From contig JAHQWL010000092.1 in NCBI GenBank assembly GCA_029856155.1, forward strand, positions 1 through 64,000: DNA of 64,000 nucleotides, in the 5' to 3' direction. Shown here piece after piece: positions 25,870 through 53,697 of the stretch; position 1 is the first letter of the stretch; every line of letters starts with the position of its first letter. Position numbers and translations under genes: made by a program. Below the pieces are notes generated by a model. The model was not told the DNA's origin, made no database searches, and saw only the letters and a list, made by a program, of their open reading frames with translations. The DNA is from Promethearchaeia archaeon. GTDB lineage: Archaea > Asgardarchaeota > Lokiarchaeia > Sigyniarchaeales > SOKP01.

Positions 25870-25875
25870 CAAGCA
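25870..25875 (+). promoter_or_regulatory. CAAGCA half-site of the island palindrome, upstream of MttB-like copy 1
   Basis: Ends 86 nt before ATG 25961; the same spacing occurs at 34370-34375 before ATG 34461. Confidence 0.45.
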
Positions 25876-25960
25876 TAATAATTATTACTACAATATCTAT
25901 ATTAGATTCAAGAAATCTATCATAAAAAAATAAATAGTAAATTAAAAAAAGGTAATTTAA

Positions 25961-27475: not shown

Positions 27476-27596
27476 TGAGTGAATAATTTAATATAATTTC
27501 TATTTTTTTTATTGATTTTCCTTTTTTTTAAATAGATTTAACCTTTAAAACAAGTATAAATTTTATTTAATACACCATAAAAGAGAATATAAATAA

Positions 27597-27614
27597 TGCT
27601 TGAAATAGCAAGCA
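27597..27614. promoter_or_regulatory. Palindromic operator TGCTTG-aaatag-CAAGCA
   Basis: Perfect 6-bp arms with 6-nt spacer, upstream of the B12-domain gene; recurs in the island. Confidence 0.7.
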
Positions 27615-27711
27615 AATAATATTTATGGTATTTCTTCCAATCGTCCTCTAATGTCATAGGAAATTAGATATTTCTAAATTTAAAATACATACTTATTTTA
27701 ATTCTTTAAAT

Positions 27712-28092
27712 ATGGAAAAAATAGACATTATAATAGGAAATGTAAAAGACGAGATCCATAACATTGCAAAGACTATACTTGTGAAAGAGATTGAAAAAAT
27801 TGGTCTTAACGCATTGGATTTAGGAATTTCAGTTCCAGTCGAAAAGTTTGTCGAGAAAATTAAGGAAACAGATGTAAAAATATTGGTACTTACTGGATTA
27901 CTCAACTCTGCCCCAGAGTACATGAGGCAAATTAGTAAAAAGCTTCGAGAGGAAGGGATAAGAGATGATGTGAAAATTCTTATCGGTGGACCTAATGTTA
28001 ACGAAGATTGGTTGAAAAGATCAGAAGCAGATGCTTTTGCGAATAATATTTCAGAGGGAATCAAAATATTATGTTCTTGGAAAGATAGGTAG
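27712..28092 (+). CDS. Stand-alone cobalamin-binding (Rossmann) domain protein
   Basis: G.V.DEIHNIAK (degenerate DxHxxG), DLG..VP.EKFV, LTGLL, ILIGG; no cap domain. Confidence 0.85.
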   Translation: MEKIDIIIGNVKDEIHNIAKTILVKEIEKIGLNALDLGISVPVEKFVEKIKETDVKILVLTGLLNSAPEYMRQISKKLREEGIRDDVKILIGGPNVNEDWLKRSEADAFANNISEGIKILCSWKDR

Positions 28093-28151
28093 TTTTTCCT
28101 AAAAACTAAATTAAAATTTTGTTTTATTATTTTTCAATAAAGATGAGATTA

Positions 28152-28796
28152 TCATTTAAATATTGAATTAAATATTGTTTTTTCTATTTTTCTAATATGC
28201 TCGGTGATTGCACTTTGAGAAATGCCGAAATGTTCTGCTAAATCTGAGGAATTAATCTTACGGGGTATTTCAAAATATCCATTCTCTACTGCGTAATATA
28301 TTATTTCTTTTTGACGCTCAGTTAATAACAGAGAAAGATGTTTCGCATCTGGAACAATTGTAGAGATGTTAAGTATTTTAAAATCATTTCCATATCTATT
28401 TACTTGATCTTCTATGAGTTGATCAATGGTATCAACATCAGCTATCATAGACGTGATTAATTGATTGCCTTCCTTAATTAAAGGCGGTTCTATCAAGATA
28501 TTAAGGTTTGAGAATAGTTGTTTCATCTCATCGACCCACTGATGTTTAATAATACAAACATACTCTTTTTTATTTTTATCTTCTGCTATAACTTCTATAT
28601 AATCAATTCCAAATTGGCCCTCTAGCTCTTTAGGATGAAAATTAGGGTCTTTAAATTTAAGCTTATTAGTACCATACATCATATTTTCGCTTAATCGATG
28701 AACTTGAACTAATTCATAACCATCAAGTAAATCGAATAATTCTTTATATTCATCCGGAAGAGGAGCTTTATATACAAGCTTTTTTAGTCGTTTCAT
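28152..28796 (-). CDS. HTH-10 (Bat-type) transcriptional regulator, copy 1
   Basis: C-terminal LTERQKEI...A...GYFEIPRK....LA..FGIS....EH.RKIE. Confidence 0.9.
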   Translation of the reverse strand: MKRLKKLVYKAPLPDEYKELFDLLDGYELVQVHRLSENMMYGTNKLKFKDPNFHPKELEGQFGIDYIEVIAEDKNKKEYVCIIKHQWVDEMKQLFSNLNILIEPPLIKEGNQLITSMIADVDTIDQLIEDQVNRYGNDFKILNISTIVPDAKHLSLLLTERQKEIIYYAVENGYFEIPRKINSSDLAEHFGISQSAITEHIRKIEKTIFNSIFK

Positions 28797-28834
28797 AGTT
28801 TAGAATTTATCTAAAAAATAAAGATATTTATAAT

Positions 28835-28852
28835 TGCTTGTGTTCGCAAGCA
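28835..28852. promoter_or_regulatory. Palindromic operator TGCTTG-tgttcg-CAAGCA
   Basis: Lies in the divergent promoter between HTH-10 copy 1 and MttB-like copy 2. Confidence 0.75.
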
Positions 28853-28924
28853 TAATAAATTTTTGTCAAACAAATTTTATAACTTTGCTTCTATACTTAA
28901 TAGAAAAAAAATCATAAAATTGAG

Positions 28925-30448
28925 ATGATTATTATTAGAGAAGGAGAAAAAGTAAAATTTCCAAGTTATGATAAATTACTACGGCTAGCAACAGAAGAAC
29001 AATTAAAACTTTTTGATTCGGCAGCTTATAGAATTCTGAGTGAAATGGGTGTGCATATTGATGATAAGGAAGCTATCGAGTATTTTAAAGATACTCCCGT
29101 CGAAATTGATGAGAAAGAGCTCATTTTTAGATTTCCTGAGTACTGGGTTCGGGAAATGATCGCAAAGGCGCCATCTTCATACGTTCTTGCGGGTCGTAAT
29201 CCCAAAAATGATTTACCAATTACAGGTCCCAAAAGAGATTATTATATCTTACCTGCAGCAGGAGCAACGAAACAATACAAATGGAATGAATCGTTAGATC
29301 AATGGGAATCTAGTATAACTGATTTCAACGATGTATATGAAAGTACTAAGATGATGGATGCAATTGATACGTATGAAGGACTATCTAATAGTATAGTTGA
29401 AGATGTCAAATCTTCTCATGCAGGACTTCCAGCAGAACTACATGCTGCGTACGCAAAGTGGAAAGGAACATCTAAATTCATAGGACCAATTGCTATAACA
29501 GAAGGGGGTACTGCTGAATGGGATTATCTTGCACAGATGGCAGCGGAAGTTCAAGGTGGTTATGATGAGTTTCGAAAACGCCCCATAATAGGCTGTTTAC
29601 CTACAGCTATTGGACCATTGACTTCTACACGACAGAATTTTTGGGCAATGGTGGGAGGAGCAAAACATCATATACCTAGCTTTCCATATTGGGGGGGCAC
29701 AGCTCCATTCACTGCACCTGCAACTCCAGCGTCACAAATAGCTTTATCACTGGCATGTACTCATTATGGAATTGCCGTGTCGCAATATTTGTCTCCTGGA
29801 ACAGCTGCACTGCCCTGGGTAATATGTACAGCAGTTGATCCGAATTCCGGACAACTAGCTCAAGCTCCAATGTTTTTACTAACTCATGGAATTGGAAATC
29901 AAGTGTACCAAGATTTATATGGTATTGCTACATTTGGATGTGCCCATGCCTTAAATGGTTCCTTAGAAGAAGTTGCTACTGGCTGGATGACAAATCTACT
30001 TACATTGACTCTTATGGGTTTGAATGTTCTTCAATTTGGAGGCCCTCCAAATGCATTTATGTGGGAAGCCTTACCGATGGGTGAATCAATCGTTAATTAT
30101 GTAAAACAATTTTTATTCAATATGAATAATAGCTTATTTCCTGAGGATGAGGATGCCTTGTCACTTAAAACAATTCTGGAAGTGGGACCAAAAGGAAGAT
30201 TTGCTACTCATCCACATACCTTAAAATATATTGATCCCAAGAAGGGATTATATTGGTATTCTAAAGATTGGATTCATGAACATTCGGATCAGTGGTTAGC
30301 AAAAGGAGGAAAACGTTGGGCATATGACACTTGTAGAGAACGATTGAAAGAGTTGGCAAAGCACGAACCTGAACCTTTAGGAAAGGATGTTGAGGAACGA
30401 CTTCAGTCAATATTGAAAGAAGCAGATGAGGAATTAGCATTATTCTAA
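28925..30448 (+). CDS. MttB superfamily methyltransferase, non-pyrrolysine, copy 2
   Basis: Clear paralogue of 25961 (shares EMGVHIDD, ITEGG.AEWDY, TSTRQNFWA, DWIHEH, ADEELALF). Confidence 0.85.
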   Translation: MIIIREGEKVKFPSYDKLLRLATEEQLKLFDSAAYRILSEMGVHIDDKEAIEYFKDTPVEIDEKELIFRFPEYWVREMIAKAPSSYVLAGRNPKNDLPITGPKRDYYILPAAGATKQYKWNESLDQWESSITDFNDVYESTKMMDAIDTYEGLSNSIVEDVKSSHAGLPAELHAAYAKWKGTSKFIGPIAITEGGTAEWDYLAQMAAEVQGGYDEFRKRPIIGCLPTAIGPLTSTRQNFWAMVGGAKHHIPSFPYWGGTAPFTAPATPASQIALSLACTHYGIAVSQYLSPGTAALPWVICTAVDPNSGQLAQAPMFLLTHGIGNQVYQDLYGIATFGCAHALNGSLEEVATGWMTNLLTLTLMGLNVLQFGGPPNAFMWEALPMGESIVNYVKQFLFNMNNSLFPEDEDALSLKTILEVGPKGRFATHPHTLKYIDPKKGLYWYSKDWIHEHSDQWLAKGGKRWAYDTCRERLKELAKHEPEPLGKDVEERLQSILKEADEELALF

Positions 30449-30465
30449 AGCGAGGTGAATAAAAA

Positions 30466-31134
30466 ATGGCAAGTAAAGAAGAAATCATTAATGGAATGAA
30501 AGACGCTATTATAACCTACAATAAAGCACAATGTTTAGAGCTCGCCAAGCAAGGGATTGCAGAAAAAGTAAAATCTTTAGAATTAATACAAGAAGGACTA
30601 ACTCCTGCAATACAGGAACTCGGAGAGAAATTCGGAAGAGGTGAGATTGCTCTTCCATATCTCATGGTGGGCGCAGAAGCTATGCAAGAAGCTCTTAATT
30701 ACATCTTGGAAACCATGCCTAAAGGAGAATATAAACCGAAAGCAAAAATGGTACTCGGGACCGTAAAAGGAGATATTCATGATTTAGGAATTAGTATCGT
30801 AGAAGCTGTGTTTCAAGCTAATGGAATCCAAGTGTATAATCTCGGTCGCGATAATCCCAAAGAAAAGTTTGTGGAAAAGGCAGAAGCTGAAGAGGCAGAC
30901 ATTATCGGTACGTCAGCCTTGCTCACAGGTACTATGTTCGAGCAGAAAGTTGTTATCGAATATTTAAAGAAGCAAGGACTCCGAGACAAATATATCTATC
31001 TGATTGGAGGAGGTGCTTGTCCTTCCAGCGAATGGTGTGATGAGATCGGTGCAGATGGATGGGCTACTGATGTTATGCTCGGGCTCGATGCTGCTAAAAA
31101 AGCTTTAGCAGAAAAGAAGGGAATAGAAATTTAA
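30466..31134 (+). CDS. Methyltransferase cognate corrinoid protein (MttC/MtbC-like), copy 1
   Basis: Cap domain plus GTVKGDIHDLG, SALLT and IGGG; GAGGTGA SD. Confidence 0.93.
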   Translation: MASKEEIINGMKDAIITYNKAQCLELAKQGIAEKVKSLELIQEGLTPAIQELGEKFGRGEIALPYLMVGAEAMQEALNYILETMPKGEYKPKAKMVLGTVKGDIHDLGISIVEAVFQANGIQVYNLGRDNPKEKFVEKAEAEEADIIGTSALLTGTMFEQKVVIEYLKKQGLRDKYIYLIGGGACPSSEWCDEIGADGWATDVMLGLDAAKKALAEKKGIEI

Positions 31135-31187
31135 ATTTTATTTTTTTATAAATAAATAATAAAAATGATAAAAAAGTAATGTAAAAG

Positions 31188-31520
31188 ATGGTTGATGTAC
31201 AAGAAGGATTTGAATTAATGAAGAAATATTTTAAACCAGAAGTTGCTAAAGAATTTAAGAAGAAAGTGGCTGTTCAATATAATATTAAAGGTCCAGGTGG
31301 AGGTACATGGCAAGTAATCTTTGACAGTGGTAATATGGATATTGTTGAAGGAGAGAAGGAAAATGCTATTCTTAAATTTAACTATGACGCTGTAGAGAGC
31401 TTTATAGGCATTCAAAAAGGAGAGATTGATGGTATACAAGCATATACTATGGGAAAACTCCAAATCGAGGGCCCTATACCTCTAGCTCAAAAACTTGCAG
31501 ACATTTTTAAACGTGAATAG
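31188..31520 (+). CDS. SCP2 sterol/lipid-binding domain protein, copy 1
   Basis: VQYNI.GPGGGTW, G..DG.QAY..GKL.IEG...LA.KL SCP2 pattern. Confidence 0.88.
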   Translation: MVDVQEGFELMKKYFKPEVAKEFKKKVAVQYNIKGPGGGTWQVIFDSGNMDIVEGEKENAILKFNYDAVESFIGIQKGEIDGIQAYTMGKLQIEGPIPLAQKLADIFKRE

Positions 31521-31685
31521 TAAAATATTTATCAATTTTTTTTATTTTTTTGATTTTAAAACCCTAATTTTTAAGGCAAGACGTTTACATTTTTCGAGAT
31601 TAGTTTTTGAATAATTAATGAGAAATTTAAACAAAAAAAGTGAAATTTCAAGAATTTAATAGTAAAAATATTTAAGTTACCTATT

Positions 31686-32591
31686 TTAGTTGATTTTAAA
31701 TACAGGATGAGTTGGAGGAGGCATCTTACCTTCATCGAACAATAATTGAGAATGAGCAGCTTTAATGAATGCAACGTTAGGATATACTAAATTTGCTAAT
31801 TGAATAGGACCATAGAATATGAAGTCTGCTCCCGCTGCTAAAGTAATCGTTGAGGCAACTACTTTTATATATTTTTTGATATGCCCAAATTTAGTAACCA
31901 AATTTATCCAGGAATCTGCTAAATTTTGTCCTGCAGTTCCAGCAGGATATCCATACTTATTTTTTACTTCGTCAATCGTATTAAGAGCAATCCCTAAGGA
32001 TGTAAAGTCAATAATACATGTATCAATTAGAAAGTTATTTTTTTTAAAATTGTAAGACAAAGCTTTTTTTATGAGTTTATCAGTAATTTCCATTCGAGCT
32101 TCAGTTGTCCAGCATTGTGATTCAATAGGAAGAAGAAAAAATGTTTCAATGTCCGTTTGACTTAATAGTTCAAATTCTTCATCATAAGAAGAGGAGGTAA
32201 TTGTATTATATACAACCTCTTTATCTAATCCATGTTCAATAAGATAATTTAGCATTGGTTGCTTAACTTCCCAATAAGGGGCGTCCACAAGAACGGGAGT
32301 ATCGGTAACTGAAAAAACAAAATCTAAAATAGGTTGAATTGATTCCTTAAAAGAAAGAATAACATCGAGTAAGGGTATCAAGCCTGTTTTATCTGCTAAC
32401 TCCTCTTGCTCTTTAATTAATTTTTCAGCATATTCTTTGTTTATTTGACCTTTTCTCTCATCCCTAAAGATTTTTTTCTGCTTTAAGTAAAATATAGTAC
32501 CCGCTAAAGCAGTGGGCACGCTTCTCGGATCTCCACCCACTATATATTTTCCTATCTTGTATGACTTTTGTTCTACGTTATATTTAAACAT
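31686..32591 (-). CDS. MtrH/MtgA-like pterin methyltransferase, divergent copy B
   Basis: PT.L.GTIFY, YNT, LID, K.KYGYP.G, GADF.FYGP; true start MFKYN at 32591 by alignment with the paralogue. Confidence 0.87.
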   Translation of the reverse strand: MFKYNVEQKSYKIGKYIVGGDPRSVPTALAGTIFYLKQKKIFRDERKGQINKEYAEKLIKEQEELADKTGLIPLLDVILSFKESIQPILDFVFSVTDTPVLVDAPYWEVKQPMLNYLIEHGLDKEVVYNTITSSSYDEEFELLSQTDIETFFLLPIESQCWTTEARMEITDKLIKKALSYNFKKNNFLIDTCIIDFTSLGIALNTIDEVKNKYGYPAGTAGQNLADSWINLVTKFGHIKKYIKVVASTITLAAGADFIFYGPIQLANLVYPNVAFIKAAHSQLLFDEGKMPPPTHPVFKIN

Positions 32592-32619
32592 CGGTTTAAA
32601 ACAATTGATATCTTGAATT

Positions 32620-33525
32620 TTATCCAATTTTAAACACTGGATGATTTGTCGGAGCCATTTTTCCTTCATCGAACAATAGTTGTGAATGCGCAGCTTTGAT
32701 GAATGCAACATTAGGGTATATGATGTTCGCATGCTGCACAGGACCATATAGTAAAAAGTCAGCTCCCGCTCCTAAAGTAATACTTGAAGCAACCACTGTC
32801 GCGTATTTTTTAATATCGCCAAATTTCGCTTTTAAATTTCTCCACGTATCCACAGCGTTGTGCGCACCAGATCCTACAGGATATCCATATTTATTCTTTA
32901 CTTCATACATCGCGCTCATTGCTAAACCTAATGATGTAACATCCACAACAGCAGTATCAATTAAGAAGTTATGGTCTGCAAAATTAGCTTCTGTTGCTTT
33001 TTTAACGAGATTACCGATTACGTCCATTCTTGCTTGAGTAGTCCAATTCTTTGATTCCATTCCTAAAAGAATGAAATTTCTGATATTACTTTCAGTTAAT
33101 AAATTATATTCCTCCTCATTGGATTCTGGTGTGAGTGAATTATAAATGATTCTGTCTTGAATCCCCATTTCTTTAACATAGTTTAGTGCATTTATTTTTA
33201 CATCTTGCGTTGGTGCATCTAATATAATAGGAACGTCGGTGACATCTACTACAAAATCAAGAATGGGTTTAATAGATGCTTCATAGGATAAAATTACATC
33301 TAATCCGGGAGTTAAGCCTGTTTTATCTGCCATATCTTCCTGATCTTTAACTAATTTTTCTGCGAAATCCTTGATTATTTCTCCTTTAGACTCATCCCTA
33401 AAAATTCCTTTTTGGCGTAAGTAGAAAATCGTTCCGATTACCGCTGTCGGGACTTCTCTTGTATCTCCACCTATTGTATATTTTCCTATATTATAAGATT
33501 TTTGCTCGACGTTATATTTGAACAT
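32620..33525 (-). CDS. mtrH: MtrH/MtgA-like methylcorrinoid:tetrahydropterin methyltransferase, copy A
   Basis: GTIFY, IYNS, LIDTAV, YGYPVGSGAHNA..TW, GADFLLYGP; AAGGAG SD before MFKYN at 33525. Confidence 0.88.
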   Translation of the reverse strand: MFKYNVEQKSYNIGKYTIGGDTREVPTAVIGTIFYLRQKGIFRDESKGEIIKDFAEKLVKDQEDMADKTGLTPGLDVILSYEASIKPILDFVVDVTDVPIILDAPTQDVKINALNYVKEMGIQDRIIYNSLTPESNEEEYNLLTESNIRNFILLGMESKNWTTQARMDVIGNLVKKATEANFADHNFLIDTAVVDVTSLGLAMSAMYEVKNKYGYPVGSGAHNAVDTWRNLKAKFGDIKKYATVVASSITLGAGADFLLYGPVQHANIIYPNVAFIKAAHSQLLFDEGKMAPTNHPVFKIG

Positions 33526-33593
33526 TATATTTACTCCTTGCAATTAACAAATAATATTATTTTGCGAAAATGAATCACCTTATTTTTAATTTC

Positions 33594-33611
33594 AGCTTGT
33601 TATTTCAAGCA
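33594..33611. promoter_or_regulatory. Palindromic operator AGCTTG-ttattt-CAAGCA
   Basis: 69 nt upstream of the mtrH-like pair; the reverse complement has the same aaataa spacer as the sites at 37953 and 46804. Confidence 0.75.
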
Positions 33612-33638
33612 TCATTAAATTCTACTCTTTTCAAAATT

Positions 33639-34283
33639 TTACTTGAATATAGAAAAAAAAATAGTCCTCTCAATTTTTCGCAAGTGTTCACAAAATGCAC
33701 TTTTAGAAATACCAAAATGATTAGCTATAGTTTCAGAATTAGTTTTACGAGGGATATCATAGTATCCGTGTTCCACTGAATAATAAATAATCTCTTTTTG
33801 TCTTTCTGTTAAGAGTAAATTTAAATTACTCCTATTAGGCTGCACAGAATTGATACTTAAAATTTTGTAGTTATCGCCGTAAATATTTTTCTGTAAATCA
33901 ATAATTGTATCGATATTTGCACCAGGTGTAATATAAGTTATGATTAAAGAATCATCTTCCATAATAATCGGAGGTTCAATTAGGATTTCAGAAACCTTAA
34001 AAAAATTGCGAAGTTCCTCATACCAGCGATGCTTAACAAGACAAATAAATTCATTTTTCTGGGTATCTTTTGCTAAAATTTCGATAAATTCAATTCCAAA
34101 TTTATTTTGAAGATTCTTGGGGTTAAAATCTTTATTTTTAAATTTAAATCGCTGAGTCGCATAGATATGAATATCATCAAACCGGTGAATTTGAAGTAAT
34201 TCATATTTTGTTAATAAATCAAAAAAGTCTTGATAACTAGGGTTAATTGGGATTTTGAGGACAATTTTTTTCAATTTTTTCAT
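33639..34283 (-). CDS. HTH-10 (Bat-type) transcriptional regulator, copy 2
   Basis: LTERQKEI...GYYDIPRK...IA.HFGISKS...EHLRKIE; full-length paralogue of 28152. Confidence 0.9.
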   Translation of the reverse strand: MKKLKKIVLKIPINPSYQDFFDLLTKYELLQIHRFDDIHIYATQRFKFKNKDFNPKNLQNKFGIEFIEILAKDTQKNEFICLVKHRWYEELRNFFKVSEILIEPPIIMEDDSLIITYITPGANIDTIIDLQKNIYGDNYKILSINSVQPNRSNLNLLLTERQKEIIYYSVEHGYYDIPRKTNSETIANHFGISKSAFCEHLRKIERTIFFSIFK

Positions 34284-34369
34284 ATTATTCAGATATATTT
34301 TAGTTCGGATATGTGATTTCTATTCATAAGCATTAATTAACTGATCTGATAACCTAAGACCCAACGAGT

Positions 34370-34375
34370 CAAGCA
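34370..34375 (+). promoter_or_regulatory. CAAGCA half-site upstream of MttB-like copy 3
   Basis: Ends 86 nt before ATG 34461, the same spacing as at copy 1. Confidence 0.45.
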
Positions 34376-34460
34376 CAATTAATATAAATTTATGAATTTT
34401 AAATAAATTGCTATTTTTCAAATCTATTTTAAAGAAATATAATTAAAAAGGGAATAATAA

Positions 34461-35975
34461 ATGAGAGAAGGAGAAAGAGTAAAATATCCTAAAATGAATC
34501 GAATGTGGCGTATCGCATCTAAAGAAGATTTAGAGAGAATCGATAATGCTGCATATCACATTTTAAGTGAAATGGGAGTTTTTATCGATGATAAAGATTG
34601 TATCGAATACTTAAAAGATACTCCATTAGAAATTGATGAAAAGGAACTCATTGTGAAATTTCCAGAATTTTGGGTACGCGAGATGATCGCAAAAGCTCCA
34701 AAATCATATATACTTGCTGCTAGGGATCCTAATAATGATTTATTACTATCAAGTTACCACGACGATTTTTATAACTTATTTACGAGTGGTTCGACGAAAA
34801 TGTATCTTTGGAATGAGCAAACAAATCAATGGGACTCTAGAATTCCCGGTGAAGAAGATGTAATTAGAGGATTTAGGATGATTGATGCTGTGGATGCTTA
34901 TGATGGATTTTTTGGTACACCCGTGGAAGATGTGAAACGAACAAATCAAGGGCTTCCCGCTGAGCTTCATACTACCTATAATAAAATGAAATGGTCTACA
35001 AAACATGGTGGAGTATGTGCGATCACCGAAGGAGGATTAAACGAATGGGACTATGTCGGTAAACTTGCCGCTGAAGTTCAAGGTGGATTTGATGAGTTAA
35101 AAAGACGACCCATAATCGCAGGTTTACCAACCTGCATTGGGCCCATGACTAGTACCCGTCAGAATTTCTGGGCTGCTGTGGGAAGTGCTAAATATCATTT
35201 ACCTACAGTACCTTATTGGGGGGGAACGGCACCATTTACAGCACCCGCAACTGCTCCAGCAATGAATGCAATGGCTTTGGCATGTACGCATTATTGTATA
35301 GCTGTTTCACAATATCTCGATCCTGGAACGGCGGCAGTTCCTTGGCCTAATACTTCACCTGTTGATCCACAATCTGGTCAATTAGCGATAAATCCAATTG
35401 CTACAATGGTACTTGGAATGGGAGGTCAAGTTTATCAAGATTTATATGGTCTTCCTATTGCGGGATGCGCATATTGCTTATCATCATCTTTAGATGAAGC
35501 TGGTGCTACATGGGCATTAAACTTATTAACAGAGTTATTATGGGGAGTGAATGTGCAACAAGTCGGATCCACACCCGGAGCGTTTATGTGGGAAACGATT
35601 CCAATGGGAGAAACATTAGTAAATTATACTAAGCAGTTCTTATTCGAAATGACTGAAGATCTTTTAAATATTGATGAAGAACACTTAGCTTTAGATGTAA
35701 TAAAAGAAACTGGTCCTAAAAAAATGTTCACGACTCATCCTCACACTCTAAAATGGATTGATCCCAAGAGGGGGTTATTCTGGCATGCTAACGACTGGAT
35801 CCATGAACATTCGGATCAATGGCTTGCGAAGGGAGCTAAAACATGGGTTGAAATTTGTCGTGAACGTTTGAAAGAATTAGATAAACATCAACCAGATCCA
35901 CCAATCCCAAAAGATGTAGATGAACGATGTAATGCACTTTTAAAAGAAGCAGATGAGGAACTCGCATTGTTTTAA
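34461..35975 (+). CDS. MttB superfamily methyltransferase, non-pyrrolysine, copy 3
   Basis: Paralogue of 25961 and 28925; shares RPIIAGLPTCIGP and NFWAAVGSAKYHLPT with copy 1. Confidence 0.85.
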   Translation: MREGERVKYPKMNRMWRIASKEDLERIDNAAYHILSEMGVFIDDKDCIEYLKDTPLEIDEKELIVKFPEFWVREMIAKAPKSYILAARDPNNDLLLSSYHDDFYNLFTSGSTKMYLWNEQTNQWDSRIPGEEDVIRGFRMIDAVDAYDGFFGTPVEDVKRTNQGLPAELHTTYNKMKWSTKHGGVCAITEGGLNEWDYVGKLAAEVQGGFDELKRRPIIAGLPTCIGPMTSTRQNFWAAVGSAKYHLPTVPYWGGTAPFTAPATAPAMNAMALACTHYCIAVSQYLDPGTAAVPWPNTSPVDPQSGQLAINPIATMVLGMGGQVYQDLYGLPIAGCAYCLSSSLDEAGATWALNLLTELLWGVNVQQVGSTPGAFMWETIPMGETLVNYTKQFLFEMTEDLLNIDEEHLALDVIKETGPKKMFTTHPHTLKWIDPKRGLFWHANDWIHEHSDQWLAKGAKTWVEICRERLKELDKHQPDPPIPKDVDERCNALLKEADEELALF

Positions 35976-35992
35976 AGAGAGGTGAATTATAA

Positions 35993-36661
35993 ATGACAAG
36001 TAAAGAAGAAATAATTAATGGAATGAAAGATGCTATTATAACCTATAACAAGGCAAAATGCTTGGAACTCGCTAAGCAAGGAATAACCGAAAAAGTAAAC
36101 TCTTTAGAATTAATACAAGAAGGATTAACTCCCGCGATACAGGAACTCGGAGAGAAATTCGGGAGAGGCGAAATTGCTCTTCCATACCTCATGGTGGGCG
36201 CGGAAGCGATGCAGGATGCATTAAACTACATCTTAGAAACCATGCCAAAAGGAGAATATAAACCGAAAGCAAAAATGGTACTCGGGACCGTAAAAGGAGA
36301 TATTCATGATTTAGGAATTAGTATCGTAGAAGCTGTGTTTCAAGCGAATGGAATTCAAGTGTATAATCTCGGTCGCGATAATCCCAAAGAAAAGTTTGTG
36401 GAAAAGGCAGAATTAGAAGAAGCAGATATTATTGGCACATCCGCTTTGCTCACAGGCACCATGTTCGAACAGAAAGTTGTTATTGAATACTTGAAAAAGC
36501 AAGGCCTTCGAGACAAGTATATCTACTTGATCGGAGGAGGAGCATGTCCTTCTAGTGAATGGTGCGATGAGATTGGTGCTGATGGATGGGCTACCGATGT
36601 GATGCTCGGACTTGATGCTGCTAAGAAATCATTGGCAGAAAAGAAAGGAATCGAACTTTAA
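35993..36661 (+). CDS. Cognate corrinoid protein, copy 2
   Basis: 8 aa differences out of 222 versus 30466 (hand count); GDIHDLG motif; GAGGTGA SD. Confidence 0.93.
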   Translation: MTSKEEIINGMKDAIITYNKAKCLELAKQGITEKVNSLELIQEGLTPAIQELGEKFGRGEIALPYLMVGAEAMQDALNYILETMPKGEYKPKAKMVLGTVKGDIHDLGISIVEAVFQANGIQVYNLGRDNPKEKFVEKAELEEADIIGTSALLTGTMFEQKVVIEYLKKQGLRDKYIYLIGGGACPSSEWCDEIGADGWATDVMLGLDAAKKSLAEKKGIEL

Positions 36662-36725
36662 TTTAATTTTTTTTTTAAATTTAGAATAAATTAATAATAA
36701 AAATAAAAGAGGAATGATATAAAAG

Positions 36726-37058
36726 ATGGTTAATGCACAAGAAGGATTTGAAATAATGAAGAAGAACTTCAAACCAGAAGTTGCCAAGGAGTTTAAGAAA
36801 CGAGTGGTTGTTCAATATAATATAGAAGGTCCTGGTGGTGGGACATGGCAAGTTAGTTTTGATAATGGCAAAATAGAAATTGTAGAAGGAGAGAAAGAAA
36901 AAGCCGTTCTAAAATTTAATTATGATTGCATAGAGAGTTTTGTTGGGATCCAAACAGGAGAAGTGGATGGCATTCAAGCATACACAACGGCCAAATTACG
37001 AATTGAAGGACCCATTGCCCTTGCTCAACAAATCGGAAAGATTTTTGGCGCTGTTTAA
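36726..37058 (+). CDS. SCP2 sterol/lipid-binding domain protein, copy 2
   Basis: Paralogue of 31188 with the same length and motifs. Confidence 0.88.
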   Translation: MVNAQEGFEIMKKNFKPEVAKEFKKRVVVQYNIEGPGGGTWQVSFDNGKIEIVEGEKEKAVLKFNYDCIESFVGIQTGEVDGIQAYTTAKLRIEGPIALAQQIGKIFGAV

Positions 37059-37091
37059 ATCGATTATTAAACGAAGGAGTTGTGATACAAC

Positions 37092-37865: not shown

Positions 37866-37952
37866 TTGAGAATCCCAAATTATCTTTTTTTTTTAATATC
37901 TGATTAGGATTAAAAAAAGTTTATAACATTTTATTATGAATAACTTTTCAAT

Positions 37953-37970
37953 TGCTTGAAATAACAAGCA
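37953..37970. promoter_or_regulatory. Palindromic operator TGCTTG-aaataa-CAAGCA
   Basis: 89 nt upstream of the RACo-like gene. Confidence 0.75.
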
Positions 37971-38058
37971 AAATTGATATAAAAATTATAACATTTTTCT
38001 TCACAAGATTTTATTATTTAATATCCAATCATTATTAATATAAATTCTAGACAAAAAA

Positions 38059-39963: not shown

Positions 39964-40013
39964 TAATCAAGCGGATTGAATATTTAACGAGAAAAGGATA
40001 AAGTGGTATTAAG

Positions 40014-41753: not shown

Positions 41754-41886
41754 TATTATTTCTTTCAAGGTGAATGGGAAAGCTCAATTAAAAGAATTAC
41801 TCGTAATTTATCTCGAAATAAAAAAACCAATTCAAATTTATGTTATATTACCGAATTTAGAACAAATTTCTTAAAAAATCCTTAAT

Positions 41887-44409: not shown

Positions 44410-44410
44410 T

Positions 44411-46774
44411 TTGATAAAAAGTAGAATATCTGAATATATTAGTACATATTTTGGGAGCGTAATTTGTGAAAAAGCTAATAAAATTCAAAATGATCTTTTG
44501 AATATCCTTTCAATAAAAGAAAATCCTACAAAAATACGAGCTATTATATTTGAAAAAGGTAATTCAATACATATTGTCATTGATGAAAAGAACAAAGTAA
44601 TATTCCATGATTGTCTTTCTTTTTTTAATCCAGAAGAAAATTATCCTTGTGCTCATTTAACTAAACTCTTGCTAGCTATAAATCCTAACACAGCTATGCA
44701 GATATTTCAGGATTGGCATCTTTATAAATTTATAAATCAATCTGATAGAGATATATCAAAAAATTTTTATTTATTATCAGAACTCTTTTTTCATTCCAAT
44801 TTATTTATCGATTCATTGCATTTTCTTAACGAAGCTATATTTTATGCGGAGGCTAATGTTGATTTAATCAAATTATATATAGGGCGTATAATAAATAAGA
44901 ACCTATTTAGTAGATTATTTTTTTTTCTTGACGATCTTTTTGAAAATTATCCAGATAATAACTTTTTAGAGCTATGTGGGAAAAATCTTAGAAAGGGGAT
45001 AATAAAGCTCTTTAAATCTATTCCATCTCTTTCATTATCTGATTTATTAAAAATTATAAAATCCCTTTACAACATTGGAAATAACATTGATTTAATAATA
45101 GGTACTGAAGAATTTATTAATGAGATACAAAAATTATTCAACTCTAAAAATTTTAATTCACAATTCTTTGCACATATATGTTTACAATTATTATATAACA
45201 AGAATAAAATCGATCAAGTTCATTTTGAAAGAATTACCAACACTAATAACGATTTAATTGTTTTTAAAAAGAAGCTTGCTAAAAAACTTGATGTTTTTTT
45301 AGAAGATGTTCACACTTTAAGCGAATACGAACAAATTGAGTTCATTTTGAAACTCTATCATATCCCTCAAGAAAAATTTCAAGAAAAATATTATCATTTT
45401 ATAACTGAAAGGCAACAAATAGAGGAAACGTTTCATGCTAGAAAGCTTGCTTTTTTAAAGCTCTTGATTAAGCGAAGCAAAGTCCTCCTGAATTCTAAAG
45501 TTGATATTGAAAAAGAGAGAGACAAATATCGTATAATTCATGAACCAGATATTATAAAAAATCAATTTTATACGGATTATCTTCTACCAAGACTAGGCTT
45601 TTTTGGCAATAATTTTGAGATGATTAAACCTCGGGATATTGCAATAAACTTTTATCTCTTTTACCGTTTGTATCGAATTAATTGGAATGAACTTCCAGAT
45701 GTTTATTATTTTAGAAATAAGTTTTGGGATGAATTAGCTATCCAAAATATAAAATCGAAACATGGGTTGCCCCTAATGAGATATGGAGTCGATTATACAT
45801 TGGACGCCGGTCTCGAATTTTTGGATAATAATGAGATCCTTATAATTGAATGGGATCTTGCGGATAAGTCATATTATGGAGGTGTTGTAATGGCGTTTGG
45901 AACCGCTAAGATGATACCGGATTATGAAAATCCTTTATTATATGACATTAAACCTTTTGACTTAACTTTCTGTTTTAAAAATCCTAGAGAGATTGATAGC
46001 GAAAATCTTAAAATTATGAAAATTATATCCAAATGTTCCTTTAAAGATACGATATATAAGGTTTCGAGAGGAATGTCCTTTATAGAAGGGTCTTATCCCC
46101 TTTCCCTAATATTAGATGTACTAAAGCATGAGATTTCTCCTCTTGATGCTATCAATTTATTAGATGAAAGCCCTAAAAAAAACTACGTACCGCATTTTTA
46201 TCAATTTATTCATGAGTTTAAAGAGTTTATCTTTAATGAGGTTTTGAAAGCCAAGTTAGAAAATATAGGTGAGTTAAAGAAAATTTCTGATACTAATGTA
46301 GAAACCATTATTAAATTAATAGGATTGACCACTAGTTTGGCCGGAATTCAATTTCCATATTCCGAGACGATTAAACTTTTATTAAAACCGGGTATCACGA
46401 GAGATTCATTACGTTTTAAACTAATCAATATTGTTCATGAATATATACAAGCCATTTTAAACAGTGATAAAATTGGGAATACAATCATCTTTGATCTAAA
46501 TAAAATGAAAAATACTCTATTTTCGCAATATTCTGAGCAGATCTTAAAAATCAGAAAAGAAGAATTTGAATCCGCAATAATATATCAGACTAAGGAAAGA
46601 GGTTCTTTCTATTTTGATCTCTCAAATATTGCCCTCACTTATTATGGAATCCAAATTATGAAGATACTAAAAATACTGGGAGAATTAAATATAAAAAGTA
46701 CTATTTTTGATCGATTTGCTGAAATAGCTCAAAAATTAGGTTTGAATCTGAATATTATTATCAATAGTAATTAA
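44411..46774 (+). CDS. Large helical protein with N-terminal SWIM-like Zn finger
   Basis: FHDC-x11-CAHL resembles the SWIM CxC...CxH motif with His as first ligand; TTG start 1 nt after the VWA stop. Confidence 0.65.
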   Translation: MIKSRISEYISTYFGSVICEKANKIQNDLLNILSIKENPTKIRAIIFEKGNSIHIVIDEKNKVIFHDCLSFFNPEENYPCAHLTKLLLAINPNTAMQIFQDWHLYKFINQSDRDISKNFYLLSELFFHSNLFIDSLHFLNEAIFYAEANVDLIKLYIGRIINKNLFSRLFFFLDDLFENYPDNNFLELCGKNLRKGIIKLFKSIPSLSLSDLLKIIKSLYNIGNNIDLIIGTEEFINEIQKLFNSKNFNSQFFAHICLQLLYNKNKIDQVHFERITNTNNDLIVFKKKLAKKLDVFLEDVHTLSEYEQIEFILKLYHIPQEKFQEKYYHFITERQQIEETFHARKLAFLKLLIKRSKVLLNSKVDIEKERDKYRIIHEPDIIKNQFYTDYLLPRLGFFGNNFEMIKPRDIAINFYLFYRLYRINWNELPDVYYFRNKFWDELAIQNIKSKHGLPLMRYGVDYTLDAGLEFLDNNEILIIEWDLADKSYYGGVVMAFGTAKMIPDYENPLLYDIKPFDLTFCFKNPREIDSENLKIMKIISKCSFKDTIYKVSRGMSFIEGSYPLSLILDVLKHEISPLDAINLLDESPKKNYVPHFYQFIHEFKEFIFNEVLKAKLENIGELKKISDTNVETIIKLIGLTTSLAGIQFPYSETIKLLLKPGITRDSLRFKLINIVHEYIQAILNSDKIGNTIIFDLNKMKNTLFSQYSEQILKIRKEEFESAIIYQTKERGSFYFDLSNIALTYYGIQIMKILKILGELNIKSTIFDRFAEIAQKLGLNLNIIINSN

Positions 46775-46803
46775 AAAAAGCATTATATGGACTCTTAACT
46801 ATT

Positions 46804-46821
46804 AGCTTGAAATAACAAGCT
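46804..46821. promoter_or_regulatory. Palindromic operator AGCTTG-aaataa-CAAGCT
   Basis: 72 nt upstream of the SCP2-like gene at 46893. Confidence 0.75.
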
Positions 46822-46892
46822 AAAAATATTTAAAATTGACATCTTGATAGTTATTAATGAAAATTATCTGAAAATTCATAAGAGGATTTGAA

Positions 46893-47318
46893 ATGAGTGA
46901 AGAAAAGAGTAGGAATTTAGAAGGATTTGCTCACATGATTTATAATCAATTTGAAAGACCCTTAAAGGACAATCAAAAATTTAAAGAGAAATATAAGGAT
47001 GCCAAATTGAAAATATTTTTAAATATAACCGATGCAACTCATGCAGCTTTATTAACGATAGATAAAGGAGCCATAACTGTAAATGGAATTCTGCAAACAG
47101 ATAAAGAGGGATTAATTAAAGCTGCTGAAGATGTTGACGCTCTAATTAAAACCGATATGAATACTTTTGTTTCGATGGAGAATATGTCCACCCTAAAAAC
47201 AATAGGGAAGATTTTTGGGGGAAAACTTAAAATTAAGGGTGGGAAGAATTTAAGAATACTTCAGGATTTAAGAAAGTTAGCTACAGAAGCAGATGCGGAT
47301 GTTAGTGAGTTTTTTTAA
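46893..47318 (+). CDS. SCP2-like domain protein, copy 3 (divergent)
   Basis: L.I.KG.I.V, DA.I..D..TF and GGKLKIKG..NL..LQ SCP2 features. Confidence 0.7.
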   Translation: MSEEKSRNLEGFAHMIYNQFERPLKDNQKFKEKYKDAKLKIFLNITDATHAALLTIDKGAITVNGILQTDKEGLIKAAEDVDALIKTDMNTFVSMENMSTLKTIGKIFGGKLKIKGGKNLRILQDLRKLATEADADVSEFF

Positions 47319-47427
47319 ATCATGTAAACCATGGAATATTAATATTAACGAATAATTCTTTATTATTTTTTTTAATTTATTTTACGTTAATTAATATTAG
47401 TAATTTTGAGTAAAATGTGTTTATTGG

Positions 47428-48741
47428 TTGTTTTCAAATATAGAGAGGTATAGATGCTTGGAGGATCTTAACATACAACAGCTTGAAAAGCAGTACTTTA
47501 GTGGTAAGGTAAGCAAGAAATCCATTGTTGATAAACTCATTTTAAAAATAGAATATAATAATGAAGTCTCTATTAGAATTAAAAGTTTAGAAACATTAAG
47601 TAAATTAAATCTATTATCTGATATGCATTTTGATTATTTAGAAAATCTAGCTATAGCTGATTTGAATGATCAAATTAGATCTATAGCAATAAAAACTATT
47701 ATAGACCAGTTCTATGATAAAGCGGACTTTTTAATAAATTGGATTGTTTATTTTGAGAATTCACCTTTTCTATTAAATGTGGCTATTAATTCATTGATTA
47801 AGATTGACGAGCAATACTTAAAATATCTTTTATCAGAATCCATAACAAAAAAAATATCTGAAAAATCAAACAAGACAGATGAACTATTCAAGAAAGAATT
47901 AAAAAACTTATTTAACGAAAAACCACCAAATATGCTCCCAATTGATCAACTTACACAAATATTCCTTAATTTCTGTTTTATTTTAAACAATGAAAAAAAA
48001 TATCTTTTTTCTGAAAATCTAAACACTTCATCACTTATGTATAAACTTGAAGAGGGATGTATTACTGAATTAAGAGTGTGGGGTCTAAAAATTATTAAAG
48101 TCAGTGATCTTGAAGGTATCAATTTATTAACAGAATTGCAGATCCTTGATCTATCTGGGAATAATTTAAAGGAAATTGATGGGTTGATAAATCTTTCCAA
48201 ATTAAAATTGCTAAAATTTGGTGATTTAAGTTATGATACTGGTAATCAAATAAGTGAGATTAAAGGTCTTAATTCCTTGCCTAATCTTAAGATTCTCAAC
48301 CTATCAAATAATTTTATTAAGCAAATCAAAGGTATTGATAATTTAAAAAATTTGGAATATTTGTATTTAGTTAATAATTCTATTTCAGAGATACAAGATA
48401 TTGAAAATCTTGAAAAACTGAGATATTTGAATCTTGAGAAAAATAATATCTCTAAAATTGAAAATATTGAAATCTTATCTAATTTAGAAACAATTGTATT
48501 AAACGACAATAATATAAAAGTATTAGAAAACGTCGGAACCCTGAATAAGCTCAGAGAAATAAGGATTAGTAGGAATCCACTTTCCGAGATAGAAGTTAAG
48601 CCTAGTTTAAATAATATCTGTTTAAAGCTTCATACATCAGAAATAGAACGATTATCCAAGTTAAATGGAATTGACTCATTTACAATCAAAGCTATTGGAG
48701 ATGAAAAACCTAACGAATATACTACTCGTTATCAACAATAA
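47428..48741 (+). CDS. HEAT-like N-terminus plus leucine-rich repeat (SDS22-like) protein
   Basis: Repeated LxxLxxLxLxxNxIxxIxxL units; LENLAIAD.NDQIR helical repeat. Confidence 0.88.
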   Translation: MFSNIERYRCLEDLNIQQLEKQYFSGKVSKKSIVDKLILKIEYNNEVSIRIKSLETLSKLNLLSDMHFDYLENLAIADLNDQIRSIAIKTIIDQFYDKADFLINWIVYFENSPFLLNVAINSLIKIDEQYLKYLLSESITKKISEKSNKTDELFKKELKNLFNEKPPNMLPIDQLTQIFLNFCFILNNEKKYLFSENLNTSSLMYKLEEGCITELRVWGLKIIKVSDLEGINLLTELQILDLSGNNLKEIDGLINLSKLKLLKFGDLSYDTGNQISEIKGLNSLPNLKILNLSNNFIKQIKGIDNLKNLEYLYLVNNSISEIQDIENLEKLRYLNLEKNNISKIENIEILSNLETIVLNDNNIKVLENVGTLNKLREIRISRNPLSEIEVKPSLNNICLKLHTSEIERLSKLNGIDSFTIKAIGDEKPNEYTTRYQQ

Positions 48742-49136
48742 ATAAGATATTGCCTTATTTAGGCATTCCTTTTTACCTTATCATATATTAATATGCTGAT
48801 AGTCTCATTAAGATGCATTAACAAGGTCATGGAAACTGTTAAAATCAAAAAAGAAAGTTAAAAAGAATAATAAACAAAATGAATTTATTTTCAAGTTTTC
48901 AGACATTTGAATTATATCTTATGTGATTATTTTTATTAAATTATGTTGGAATAGAATTTATCAATTATATGTTTTGAGCTTGCTATTTACAGTGTTTTAA
49001 TTTTTATGGTATTAATAGCATGATATGGTTTAGTTAACATAAGATTTATTTAACTTTTTCTTAGCAATTTTTATATAGTAGTTTGATATTATTTTTATAT
49101 TAACTTTTAATTGTTAGATTATTAATTTAAGAGGGT

Positions 49137-50866: not shown

Positions 50867-51067
50867 CAGTATTTATACTTTAAAATTAAAGGATTTAAAA
50901 ATGCTTATTAAATCTTTTAAATTATATTGTTAGAAGAACTAATGTAATTAACCAATGGGAAGTATATAGGTAACATCCCGTTGAAATTATGTAAAAAAGA
51001 ATTAGTAAAAATATTAAAAAATTCAAAATTCAGATAATTAAAACAATTAGTTTGGAGTTTTTATGAA

Positions 51068-52261
51068 ATGAATGATTTAATTGAAAAAGCAAAAGAACAC
51101 TTTGAGAAACTTGTAAGAGAGCAACTTGAACGTGTAGAACGGATGAAACAAGCAGAAGATTGGACTGATTATTCTTCGATTAAACCAATTATAATTGGTG
51201 TCGCTGGAGGTGATGGTATTGGCCCTGAAATTACAAAACATGCTCGTGCAATTATGGAATTCATTCTAAAAGAGGAAATTGAAAATGGAAGCGTTGAAAT
51301 AAGAGATATTGAAGGCTTAACGATTGAAAATAGAGCCAAACATATGAAAGCAATACCGGATGATGTTCTTGAACAATTAAAGAAATGTCATGTGATTCTA
51401 AAAGGTCCTACGCTTACTCCTCGTAAGGGTGACCAATGGCCAAATATTGAAAGTGCTAATGTTACCATGAGACGTGAGTTAGATCTTTTCGCCAATGTTC
51501 GTCCAGTTAAAGTTCCAGAATTAGGAATAGATTGGATGTTTTTCAGAGAAAATACAGAGGGCGCATATGTATTAGGTTCGAAAGGAATTAATATTTCAGA
51601 GGATTTATCAATAGATTTTAAAGTAATAACTAAGCAAGGTTCGGATAGGATTATACGTTTAGCTTTTGATTACGCAGCAAAAAATAATATTAATCGGGTG
51701 TCTGTAGTAACTAAAGCTAATGTCATAAAAGCCACTGATGGTAGATTCCTTGCTATGGCAGAAGAAATCGCTAAAGAATATCCACAGGTGAAATGGGATG
51801 ATTGGTATATTGATATTGCAACAGCTAAGTTAGTAGATCCCGCTCGTCAAAGTGATTTCAAGGTTTTTGTTGCTCCAAATCTTTATGGTGATATTATAAC
51901 AGATGAAGCTGCTCAAATTCAAGGTGGTGTTGGGACTGCTGGAAGTGCTAATATCGGTAAACGTTATTCTATGTTTGAAGCTATCCATGGTACTGCCCCT
52001 AGAATGGTTGAAACAGGACGCACTAAATATGCTGATCCTTCAAGTATTATAAAAGCTGCTGCGTTATTAATTAATCATATTGGTTTTGTTGAAAGAGCAA
52101 AGAAACTTGAGATGGCTCTTGATATTTGTGCTACATTTGAAAGAAAGTTGAAAATGACGGGGAGAGATACCGGTGCTACTGGAGAAGAATATGCAAAATA
52201 TATTATGGATACTATTCAAGATCCTAATCTTGAGGAAAAATGGAACAGGTATCAAAAATAA
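51068..52261 (+). CDS. Isocitrate/isopropylmalate dehydrogenase family (probably isocitrate or homoisocitrate dehydrogenase)
   Basis: GDGIGPEI, LKGP..TP, S.NV..RR.LDLFANVRP, RENTEG.Y, KANV.K, NLYGDI.TD, FEAIHGTAP. Confidence 0.9.
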   Translation: MNDLIEKAKEHFEKLVREQLERVERMKQAEDWTDYSSIKPIIIGVAGGDGIGPEITKHARAIMEFILKEEIENGSVEIRDIEGLTIENRAKHMKAIPDDVLEQLKKCHVILKGPTLTPRKGDQWPNIESANVTMRRELDLFANVRPVKVPELGIDWMFFRENTEGAYVLGSKGINISEDLSIDFKVITKQGSDRIIRLAFDYAAKNNINRVSVVTKANVIKATDGRFLAMAEEIAKEYPQVKWDDWYIDIATAKLVDPARQSDFKVFVAPNLYGDIITDEAAQIQGGVGTAGSANIGKRYSMFEAIHGTAPRMVETGRTKYADPSSIIKAAALLINHIGFVERAKKLEMALDICATFERKLKMTGRDTGATGEEYAKYIMDTIQDPNLEEKWNRYQK

Positions 52262-52455
52262 AAGAGTGAATTCAATTTTTTATTTAACTTAAAAAGATTT
52301 TTTTTATTTTTGGTAATTATATATGTCTAATGCAACAGGCATGAATATGCAAATACCCAAAATTGTTGGATTGTTAAAATTATTATAAAAATAAAAGAAA
52401 TGTTATAATCTAAACATAAATTATTTATCTTTTTTTTAATTTTCTGATATGAATT

Positions 52456-52761
52456 ATGGAAGAAGTTCCAGAAGAGAAAAAAATTGTAAGAATTGATCAA
52501 GTATATGTGGTCGGAGGAAGTTTTGATGAACCTTCAGATTTTACAAACAAGGTTAATCGAAATCTTTTACTATTACATGAAAGCAAAAAATACTATAAAA
52601 TTAAAGATATAAAGTTCAATATTTTTAATGACCAACGCTTTCCTCAGTCAACTCCTATATACCTAGCCTTTATTGTTGCTGAAGTAGATGTAGATGTTAC
52701 CCCAGAACCAGAAAAAAAAAGAAAGAAGAAAAAGAAGCAAAAGAAAAAGAAGAGAATTTGA
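52456..52761 (+). CDS. Small hypothetical protein with polybasic C-terminal tail
   Basis: 101 aa; alpha/beta-looking core (F..KVN..L...IKDIKF) and tail KKRKKKKKQKKKKRI. Confidence 0.7.
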   Translation: MEEVPEEKKIVRIDQVYVVGGSFDEPSDFTNKVNRNLLLLHESKKYYKIKDIKFNIFNDQRFPQSTPIYLAFIVAEVDVDVTPEPEKKRKKKKKQKKKKRI

Positions 52762-52961
52762 TAATATTATTATACTTTTAACTCCTGAAGTTATACCACA
52801 GATAATAGAGGCTTTAGTTGAGAATAGCAACAAAAGTTCATTACCTTTAAATCAATTTTATAATTACGATTGATACATTTACCTTATTTTTTAAACTAAA
52901 ATTCAATGATGGGTTCCCATTCCCTTAGTAGAATCATTCAATTGTTATTATATGATAATTT

Positions 52962-53609
52962 TTAACTGAATATTGTGTGATAAATTATTTTTTCTATTTT
53001 CCGCAAATGTTCATATAATGCACTCCGAGAAATTTTAAAATGATTCGCGATTTTCTTTGAATTGATTCTACGAGGTATTTCAAAATATCCATGCTGAATA
53101 GCGTAATACACAATTTCTTTCTGACGGTCTGTTAATTTTAAAAAAAGATTTTCATAGTTAACTTTTATGTTAGATATGCTTAGAATCTCCAATTTTCCTT
53201 CATAAAAGTGATTTAAGGAATTAACGAATTCATCAATATTTTTACTTTCTGTTATAATACTTACTAAAAGACGATCTTTATCTAGAATAATAGGAGGATC
53301 GATAATCAGATCTAGTTTATCGAGGAATTCTTTCGTTTCCTTAACCCAGTTATGCTTAGAAAAGAAAATGTATTCTTTATTCCCCCTATCCTCATTTATC
53401 ACTTCTATATATGACATCCCATAATGTTCGCCTTCCAACATTTTCGGATGCATTTTAGGATCCTTGAATTTTACCTTCTGTGTTGCAAAGATTTGATCCT
53501 CGTCTTGACGGTGTATTTGGAGTAATTCATATTTTTCCAATAGGTCAAAGAATTCCTTAGACTTTGGATCTAAAGGTATTTTCAGAACAATCTTTTTTAA
53601 TTGCTTCAT
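52962..53609 (-). CDS. HTH-10 (Bat-type) transcriptional regulator, copy 3
   Basis: LTDRQKEI...GYFEIPRR...IA.HF.IS....EHLRKIE; paralogue of 28152 and 33639. Confidence 0.9.
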   Translation of the reverse strand: MKQLKKIVLKIPLDPKSKEFFDLLEKYELLQIHRQDEDQIFATQKVKFKDPKMHPKMLEGEHYGMSYIEVINEDRGNKEYIFFSKHNWVKETKEFLDKLDLIIDPPIILDKDRLLVSIITESKNIDEFVNSLNHFYEGKLEILSISNIKVNYENLFLKLTDRQKEIVYYAIQHGYFEIPRRINSKKIANHFKISRSALYEHLRKIEKIIYHTIFS

Positions 53610-53639
53610 TTGTTAGTATAAATATTAACAGATTTAGAT

Positions 53640-53657
53640 AACTTGAATTTTCAAGCT
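53640..53657. promoter_or_regulatory. Palindromic operator variant AACTTG-aatttt-CAAGCT
   Basis: Divergent promoter of HTH-10 copy 3 and the hydrolase; extra half-site CAAGCA at 53748-53753. Confidence 0.6.
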
Positions 53658-53697
53658 TAAGATTATTATATAAATAAAAATTCTCTTTTAATTAGCT

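Follow-up and report, generated by a model that had tools for sequence, protein, structure and literature searches.

A recurrent palindrome in the genome of a Promethearchaeia archaeon is real and well conserved, and it is very probably the operator of a local regulon of six promoters, bound by three paralogous regulators with an HTH_10 domain (PF04967). It lies in the window analysed here, the first 64,000 nucleotides of contig JAHQWL010000092.1 (C92:1-64000), from an assembly of 4.10 Mb in 104 contigs with 30% G+C, which is coded G000 in the comparisons below. The favoured reading as a whole, to which a probability of roughly 0.75 is given, is that RCTTG-N6-CAAGY would be the operator of a small, Asgard-restricted subfamily of regulators of about 214 residues, of which the window encodes three (HTH10-1, HTH10-2 and HTH10-3), and that the sign of regulation would depend on the position of the site in the promoter. 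The six sites are the following; distances are those to the nearest start, counted from where the 18-mer ends:

27597..27614, site 1, TGCTTG-AAATAG-CAAGCA, 97 nt before the gene for a short B12-binding protein (27712-28092)
28835..28852, site 2, TGCTTG-TGTTCG-CAAGCA, in the divergent HTH10-1/MttB2 region, 72 nt from MttB2 and 38 nt from HTH10-1
33594..33611, site 3, between the HTH10-2 stop and MtrH-b, reading TGCTTG-AAATAA-CAAGCT in gene orientation and followed by the TATA-like tract TAAAAATAAG; 50 nt from the TTG of MtrH-b at 33543, or 68 nt from the better-supported ATG at 33525
37953..37970, site 4, TGCTTG-AAATAA-CAAGCA, 88 nt before the gene for RACo (corrinoid reductive activator)
46804..46821, site 5, AGCTTG-AAATAA-CAAGCT, 71 nt before a 141-aa SCP2-like gene
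53640..53657, site 6, AACTTG-AATTTT-CAAGCT, 30 nt before HTH10-3, on the promoter side of a 738-aa gene

The motif statistics computed here set these sites apart from the rest of the genome. Five exact copies of WGCTTG-N6-CAAGCW occur in the window (27597, 28835, 33594, 37953 and 46804), together with a sixth that has one mismatch (53640), and dinucleotide shuffles of the window give chance expectations of 0.03 exact copies and 0.28 copies with at most one mismatch; the observed counts were reached by no shuffle. The core GCTTG-N6-CAAGC is found five times in the 4.10 Mb assembly, always within the window, and the same arms at a spacing of 4, 5, 7 or 8 give one or two matches each, all outside the locus. 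With one mismatch allowed, the core has 30 matches in the genome: 29 fall inside open reading frames (ORFs) of 100 aa or more, and site 6 alone is intergenic. Relaxed to RCTTG-N6-CAAGY, the motif matches ten times, at the six sites and at four places within ORFs. The intergenic matches in the genome are thus the six sites and no others, an enrichment at promoters over the genome background, and the motif is not equally common upstream of unrelated genes. The sequence-only reading from which this work started had placed six 18-mers in intergenic DNA and had seen no full motif in the other intergenic regions, and both statements hold. Same-genus relatives have 0-2 core matches per genome; the high counts in the higher-GC relatives G027, G029 and G033 were taken as background, control counts being raised there too. 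A position weight matrix scan trained partly on these sites, and hence circular, was used for ranking only. Similarity between promoters extends only about 27 nt from the sites, into the adjoining A/T tract, so the sites do not sit within long repeats.

The palindrome is also kept in other organisms. In four of them, homologous islands share both the genes and the motif, at corresponding promoters; two are metagenome contigs (L081 and L082), and the others are L186, from G182, and L187, from G280. Conservation in related genomes, a check proposed at the outset, thus extends to up to five organisms (G000, L081, L082, G182 and G280). The promoters that carry the site are:

HTH10/MttB divergent region (site 2 in the window): G000, L081 (twice), L082, L186, L187
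before MtrH-b (site 3): G000, L082, L186, L187
before RACo (site 4): G000 and L187, the latter with a two-mismatch version, ACTTG-AAATAA-CAAGT
before the 141-aa gene (site 5): G000, L081 and L187, in the same orientation
before SCP2-like, SDR or 3-beta-HSD-like genes: L081, L082

At orthologous sites the spacers vary and the CTTG/CAAG arms never do; the arms are invariant across about 40 sites, and the half-site centres are 11 bp apart, about one helical turn. In G000, all but one of the five island sites have the spacer AAATAR, oriented toward the target gene. This invariance bears on the proposal that the palindromes are RNA hairpins acting as terminators, processing sites or structures of the 5' untranslated region (UTR). 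Stems of 5-6 bp could form, with predicted energies of -3.5 to -8.7 kcal/mol, but the arms keep their sequence instead of covarying, there is neither a T-run nor an Rfam match, and the sites are probably not transcribed because they lie upstream of TATA-like tracts, all of which makes hairpins highly improbable.

Besides the full palindromes, single half-sites were noted early on before MttB copies 1 and 3, and these are confirmed, each 85 nt from the ATG and conserved in orthologous MttB promoters:

25870..25875, plus strand, CAAGCA, before MttB1, with a TATA-like tract directly after it
34370..34375, plus strand, CAAGCA, in the HTH10-2/MttB3 divergent region, before MttB3

The half-site of MttB3 type also precedes a 91%-identical MttB in L081, and a proximal CAAGCA is present in every MttB promoter examined, including those of MttB1, MttB3 and the distant islands of G034 and G026, mostly some 70-110 nt before the ATG and with a TATA-like tract 0-8 nt after it. 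A third half-site, at 53748, does exist, as the earlier reading had it; it is probably a chance occurrence, since the orthologous spacer of relatives does not conserve it. The island of G026 has a different repeated motif, GGTTGTTATAYGAGGT, in three intergenic regions beside MtrH-like genes (L057:2620-4877), which may be another operator.

What ties the motif to the HTH_10 proteins is above all their co-occurrence. Subfamily genes outside the window, taken as those with 43% identity or more whose upstream sequence covers 100 nt or more, number 21 among all fetched loci. All 21 have the motif, with at most one mismatch, within 300 nt upstream, 19 of them at 40-49 nt before the ATG; it precedes none of 35 remoter HTH_10 genes, whose identity is 35% or lower. 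Orthologues of HTH10-3 (60-88% identity) are found in 16 species genomes and several metagenome contigs. Wherever the upstream sequence of an orthologue is long enough, it contains GCTTGAA-ww-TTCAAGT, the first G of which lies 40-49 nt from the ATG. When 17 species are aligned on the site, the 16-nt core is invariant save for one terminal base, and the TATA-like tract on its far side (TTTATATAATAA-like) is conserved, while the stretch of about 31 nt between site and ATG is not. Together with the conserved orthologous promoters, these counts make the three paralogues by far the best candidates for the cognate proteins, which is what the sequence-only reading had proposed. It is very unlikely that some other factor binds the motif and the HTH_10 genes merely travel with the same loci. 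HTH10-2, which has no full site of its own, would agree with such a factor, but the motif stays at a fixed distance from the HTH10-3 gene in loci where the divergent neighbour is not the 738-aa gene (L063, L065, L066, L068 and L075), and the island showed no further DNA-binding gene. In one HTH10-3 locus (L062:551-3062, from G015) the motif occurs a second time, 51 nt before a gene for a PFL-like glycyl-radical enzyme of 819 aa, and several other HTH10-3 loci have adjoining ORFs of 755-863 aa.

The properties of the proteins are in keeping with binding to a palindrome. The HTH_10 domain scores 70.3, 64.4 and 61.9 bits in the three window proteins, compared with a Pfam cut-off of 23.1; they are about 50% identical to one another and are the only members of the subfamily in the genome. 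The subfamily, which appears from its distribution to be restricted to Asgard archaea, comprises 46 clusters among 5.8 billion proteins and occurs in 19/400 genomes of the phylum. Related contigs bear the names Promethearchaeota, Thorarchaeota, Hodarchaeota or Lokiarchaeota, which makes the source of the window an Asgard archaeon. HTH10-3 belongs to a clade that is set apart from the island-type proteins in the tree (support 100/99), and the recognition helix S-x-S-A-x-x-E-H-x-R-K is conserved across clades. In the AlphaFold model of HTH10-1 (mean predicted local distance difference test, pLDDT, of 83.8), residues 148-214 resemble region 4 of sigma-70 and the helix-turn-helix (HTH) domains of LuxR type (Z 8.1-8.5), and residues 1-148 resemble the C-terminal region of Ta1207 (5m86; Z 10.1, root-mean-square deviation 4.1, 139 residues aligned). 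The N-terminal alpha/beta domain is probably the sensor. The whole model had no clear Foldseek match in the PDB, and a sequence search among solved structures returned nothing relevant.

The predicted homodimer of HTH10-1 scores 0.53, with 0.00 for the best control, and its runs agree in at least 95% of contacts with pLDDT of at least 84. This mark is reached by 20/30 proteins solved as same-chain pairs and by 1/23 solved as single chains, counts that hold only roughly here because the prediction used an alignment of our own making. The interface includes HTH helices 166-177 and 202-214 and is where the two HTH domains meet, in agreement with the 11-bp distance between half-sites; the model thus supports the view that HTH10-1 acts as a homodimer. 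Such a dimer would most likely put its two recognition helices into successive major grooves, given the distance between the half-site centres.

The sign of regulation has to be read from promoter geometry. At the target promoters, an A-rich stretch of 3-6 nt that resembles a B recognition element (BRE) comes after the 18-mer, and a TATA-like tract comes next; the tract is TAAAAATAAG, for example, upstream of MtrH-b in G000 and L082, and the 141-aa gene has TATTTAAAA or TATATATT. If TATA is near -27, the centre of the site would be near -48 of the start. At HTH10-3 the arrangement is the reverse, the site lying between the conserved TATA-like tract and the ATG, which places the expected transcription start in or just after the site and suggests autorepression. 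In Pyrococcus furiosus, a TrmBL1 site upstream of BRE/TATA leads to activation and one downstream of it to repression (PMC4706686). Activation of the target promoters is plausible on these grounds, and at the divergent pairs (sites 2 and 6) a single operator could do both jobs. The tract that adjoins site 6 is the following:

53663..53680, conserved TATA-like tract, upstream of the site for HTH10-3 and downstream of it for the 738-aa gene

The same geometry can be read differently. The regulator and its operator may be the same pair and the protein a plain repressor everywhere, with the dimer lying against BRE/TATA and blocking TFB/TBP until it is released by the substrate. Accessory catabolic islands are commonly derepressed by their substrate, and the promoter-proximal half-site is 0-6 nt from the TATA-like tract and may overlap the BRE. 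Most target promoters, on the other hand, have the A-rich BRE-like spacer between site and tract, the same placement as that from which TrmBL1 activates. A pure repressor is a serious rival to dual regulation, even though it is held to be unlikely.

Several points weigh against the dual-regulator reading or parts of it. The assignment of TATA elements in DNA of 70-85% A+T is uncertain, and a site that abuts the BRE could equally block TFB; a positional TATA profile of the genome, meant to calibrate the length of 5' UTRs, had too few usable promoters. No full site lies in the promoter of HTH10-2, and in the islands of G034 and G026, where the regulators are 46% identical, CAAGCA half-sites were found and the full palindrome was not. 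Finally, many HTH10-3 loci come from one genus and are not independent; divergent members with 60% identity and other gene contexts still keep the site.

In the favoured reading, HTH10-1 and HTH10-2 would have arrived with the 23 kb accessory island for corrinoid-dependent methyl transfer and would control each of its transcription units through five full sites and two promoter-proximal half-sites. HTH10-3 would represent an older clade; its promoter, beside the 738-aa esterase-like gene, contains the core motif as well. What the analysis shows is the motif statistics, the conservation and the co-occurrence, and we infer DNA binding, dimer geometry, sign and ligand in this scheme: when the ligand is present the regulator would activate the catabolic operons, and its own gene would be repressed, which amounts to a position-dependent dual regulator.

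The island and its surroundings have the following gene content, with assignments from Pfam:

25728..49038, accessory island carrying sites 1-5, with about 100 nt in its place in the relative G005 (borders by alignment, approximate)
25961-27475, plus strand, MttB1
27712-28092, plus strand, short B12-binding protein
28152-28796, minus strand, HTH10-1, 214 aa, C-terminal HTH_10 domain (70.3 bits)
28925-31520, plus strand, MttB2, corrinoid protein and SCP2, a target operon
31686-33525, minus strand, MtrH-b and MtrH-a, a target operon
33639-34283, minus strand, HTH10-2, 214 aa
34461-37865, plus strand, MttB3, corrinoid protein, SCP2 and SDR
38059-46774, plus strand, RACo, thermosome-like gene, VWA protein and 787-aa protein, a probable target operon
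46893-48741, plus strand, 141-aa SCP2-like gene and LRR protein, a target
52962-53609, minus strand, HTH10-3, 215 aa, member of the widely conserved clade
53996, plus strand, annotated ATG of the 738-aa gene

The alignment indicates that the stretch from 25728 to 49038 is an accessory insertion relative to G005. In same-genus relatives the ACL genes are directly followed by the permease and IDH genes with no island between them, and a close homologue of MttB3 was found in 0/24 same-genus genomes searched and only in G034 and G026, which belong to other families; the G+C content of the island equals that of its flanks. The island holds duplicated modules of HTH10, MttB, corrinoid protein and SCP2, and one may ask whether the palindromes are recombination sites or ends of mobile elements left over from the shuffling of MttB cassettes. 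Arms of 6 bp around a 6-bp spacer do resemble the core sites of recombinases. Nevertheless, no recombinase or tRNA was found in the island, its borders (about 25728 and 49038) are away from the sites, which are not at module borders either, repeats around the sites measure at most 45 nt, and the spacing to promoters is fixed, as is that to the HTH10-3 ATG in loci that lack the island; this origin is considered extremely unlikely.

Some features of individual genes deserve mention. The operon from RACo to the 787-aa gene is probable, judging from gene spacing, and the thermosome-like gene (40014-41753) lies directly 3' of RACo in G280 as well (L187:6150-7883, 60% identity), a conserved pairing. 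The two MtrH ORFs as listed (31686-33543) overlap by 128 nt; the length of their orthologues (301 aa) and the AAGGAG motif before the ATG at 33525 indicate that both true starts are further downstream than in the ORF list. The permease ORF at the edge of the island (49039-50866) has 476 aa compared with 525 aa in G005, and homologous DNA begins near 49039; the ORF may be broken or wrongly called at its 5' end. The 738-aa protein weakly matches tannase/feruloyl esterase (E 0.0028). Its gene probably starts about 190 nt upstream of the first ATG, at a conserved in-frame ATT/ATA after AGGTG; the intervening stretch (53807-53995), which lacks any in-frame ATG, GTG or TTG, is conserved in a coding-like manner across five genomes. 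The spacer between this gene and HTH10-3 also contains a second palindrome, TATGGTA-N-TACCATA (53697-53717), with compensatory G>A and C>T changes (ATGATA...TATCAT) in G021 and G008; it may form a hairpin in the 5' UTR or serve as a further protein site.

The link that had been drawn between the 141-aa gene and the island is supported by conservation of its site in L081 and G280; the match of this gene to SCP2 (Pfam E 0.0075) stays below threshold, at 17 bits where the cut-off is 21.3. The proposal that the motif also ties the hydrolase locus of HTH10-3 to the methyltransferases is not supported: HTH10-3, its site and the 738-aa gene are, judging from their distribution, an older module separate from the island, and the HTH10-3/738-aa pair is conserved in many genomes without an MttB island. 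Since this pair exists without the island and a glycyl-radical enzyme is also fronted by the motif, the sharing reflects paralogy of the regulators, and the further claim that it points to a lipid-type substrate is not supported either. A more ambitious version, which we regard as tentative and rather doubtful, is that all clades of the subfamily share one operator code and that, for this reason, the horizontally acquired island plugs into the resident HTH10-3 circuit, which in relatives would also front the glycyl-radical enzyme and the esterase-like gene; the paralogues would then cross-regulate, each sensing a different methylated substrate.

With respect to known systems, the HTH_10 regulators of haloarchaea include Bat and DmsR. 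These have in common with the Asgard proteins the C-terminal HTH_10 domain, which here scores well above the Pfam threshold; unlike them, the Asgard subfamily is devoid of GAF, PAS and BAT domains and has instead the N-terminal 148 residues that resemble part of Ta1207. Pfam found none of these sensor domains in the three window proteins, which are thus not of Bat type. To our knowledge, no specific Asgard transcription factor has a defined operator, and literature searches for the operators of HTH_10 regulators found none, whereas for the Asgard subfamily an operator can be defined. Local regulators of bacteria, of LuxR/NarL and LysR type, act at divergent promoters, and the likeness extends to a similar HTH fold and to one operator between the regulator gene and a divergent catabolic operon; the differences are the archaeal TBP/TFB machinery, the lack of a receiver or LysR substrate domain and the lack of membership at sequence level. 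In Pyrococcus furiosus, TrmBL1 recognizes the motif TGM, TATCAC-N5-GTGATA, at about 28 sites of a global sugar regulon (PMC4706686). Both operators are palindromic, and placements upstream and downstream of BRE/TATA are both present in the window; TrmBL1 is nonetheless of an unrelated family (TrmB), and the regulon described here is local, with six sites and a sign that is only inferred.

Clusters of non-pyrrolysine MttB, corrinoid protein and MtrH are described for Asgard archaea (PMC11291895), and the set is the same as here, an MttB-like gene and a corrinoid protein adjoining MtrH. The searched part of that text does not contain the word 'regulator'; in the present window the cluster comes with dedicated regulators and a predicted operator. 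If the shared code across clades were true, it would be the first defined regulator/operator code and the first dual-sign promoter logic in Asgard archaea. Regulator and site form a compact pair, with a protein of 214 aa that should express easily and a site of 16-18 bp with about 40 natural variants. The sites delimit the genes of a poorly understood system, the non-pyrrolysine MttB/corrinoid/MtrH system, including the RACo activator, the thermosome-like gene, the SCP2-type proteins and the LRR protein, and the ligand of the regulators would point to the methyl donor.

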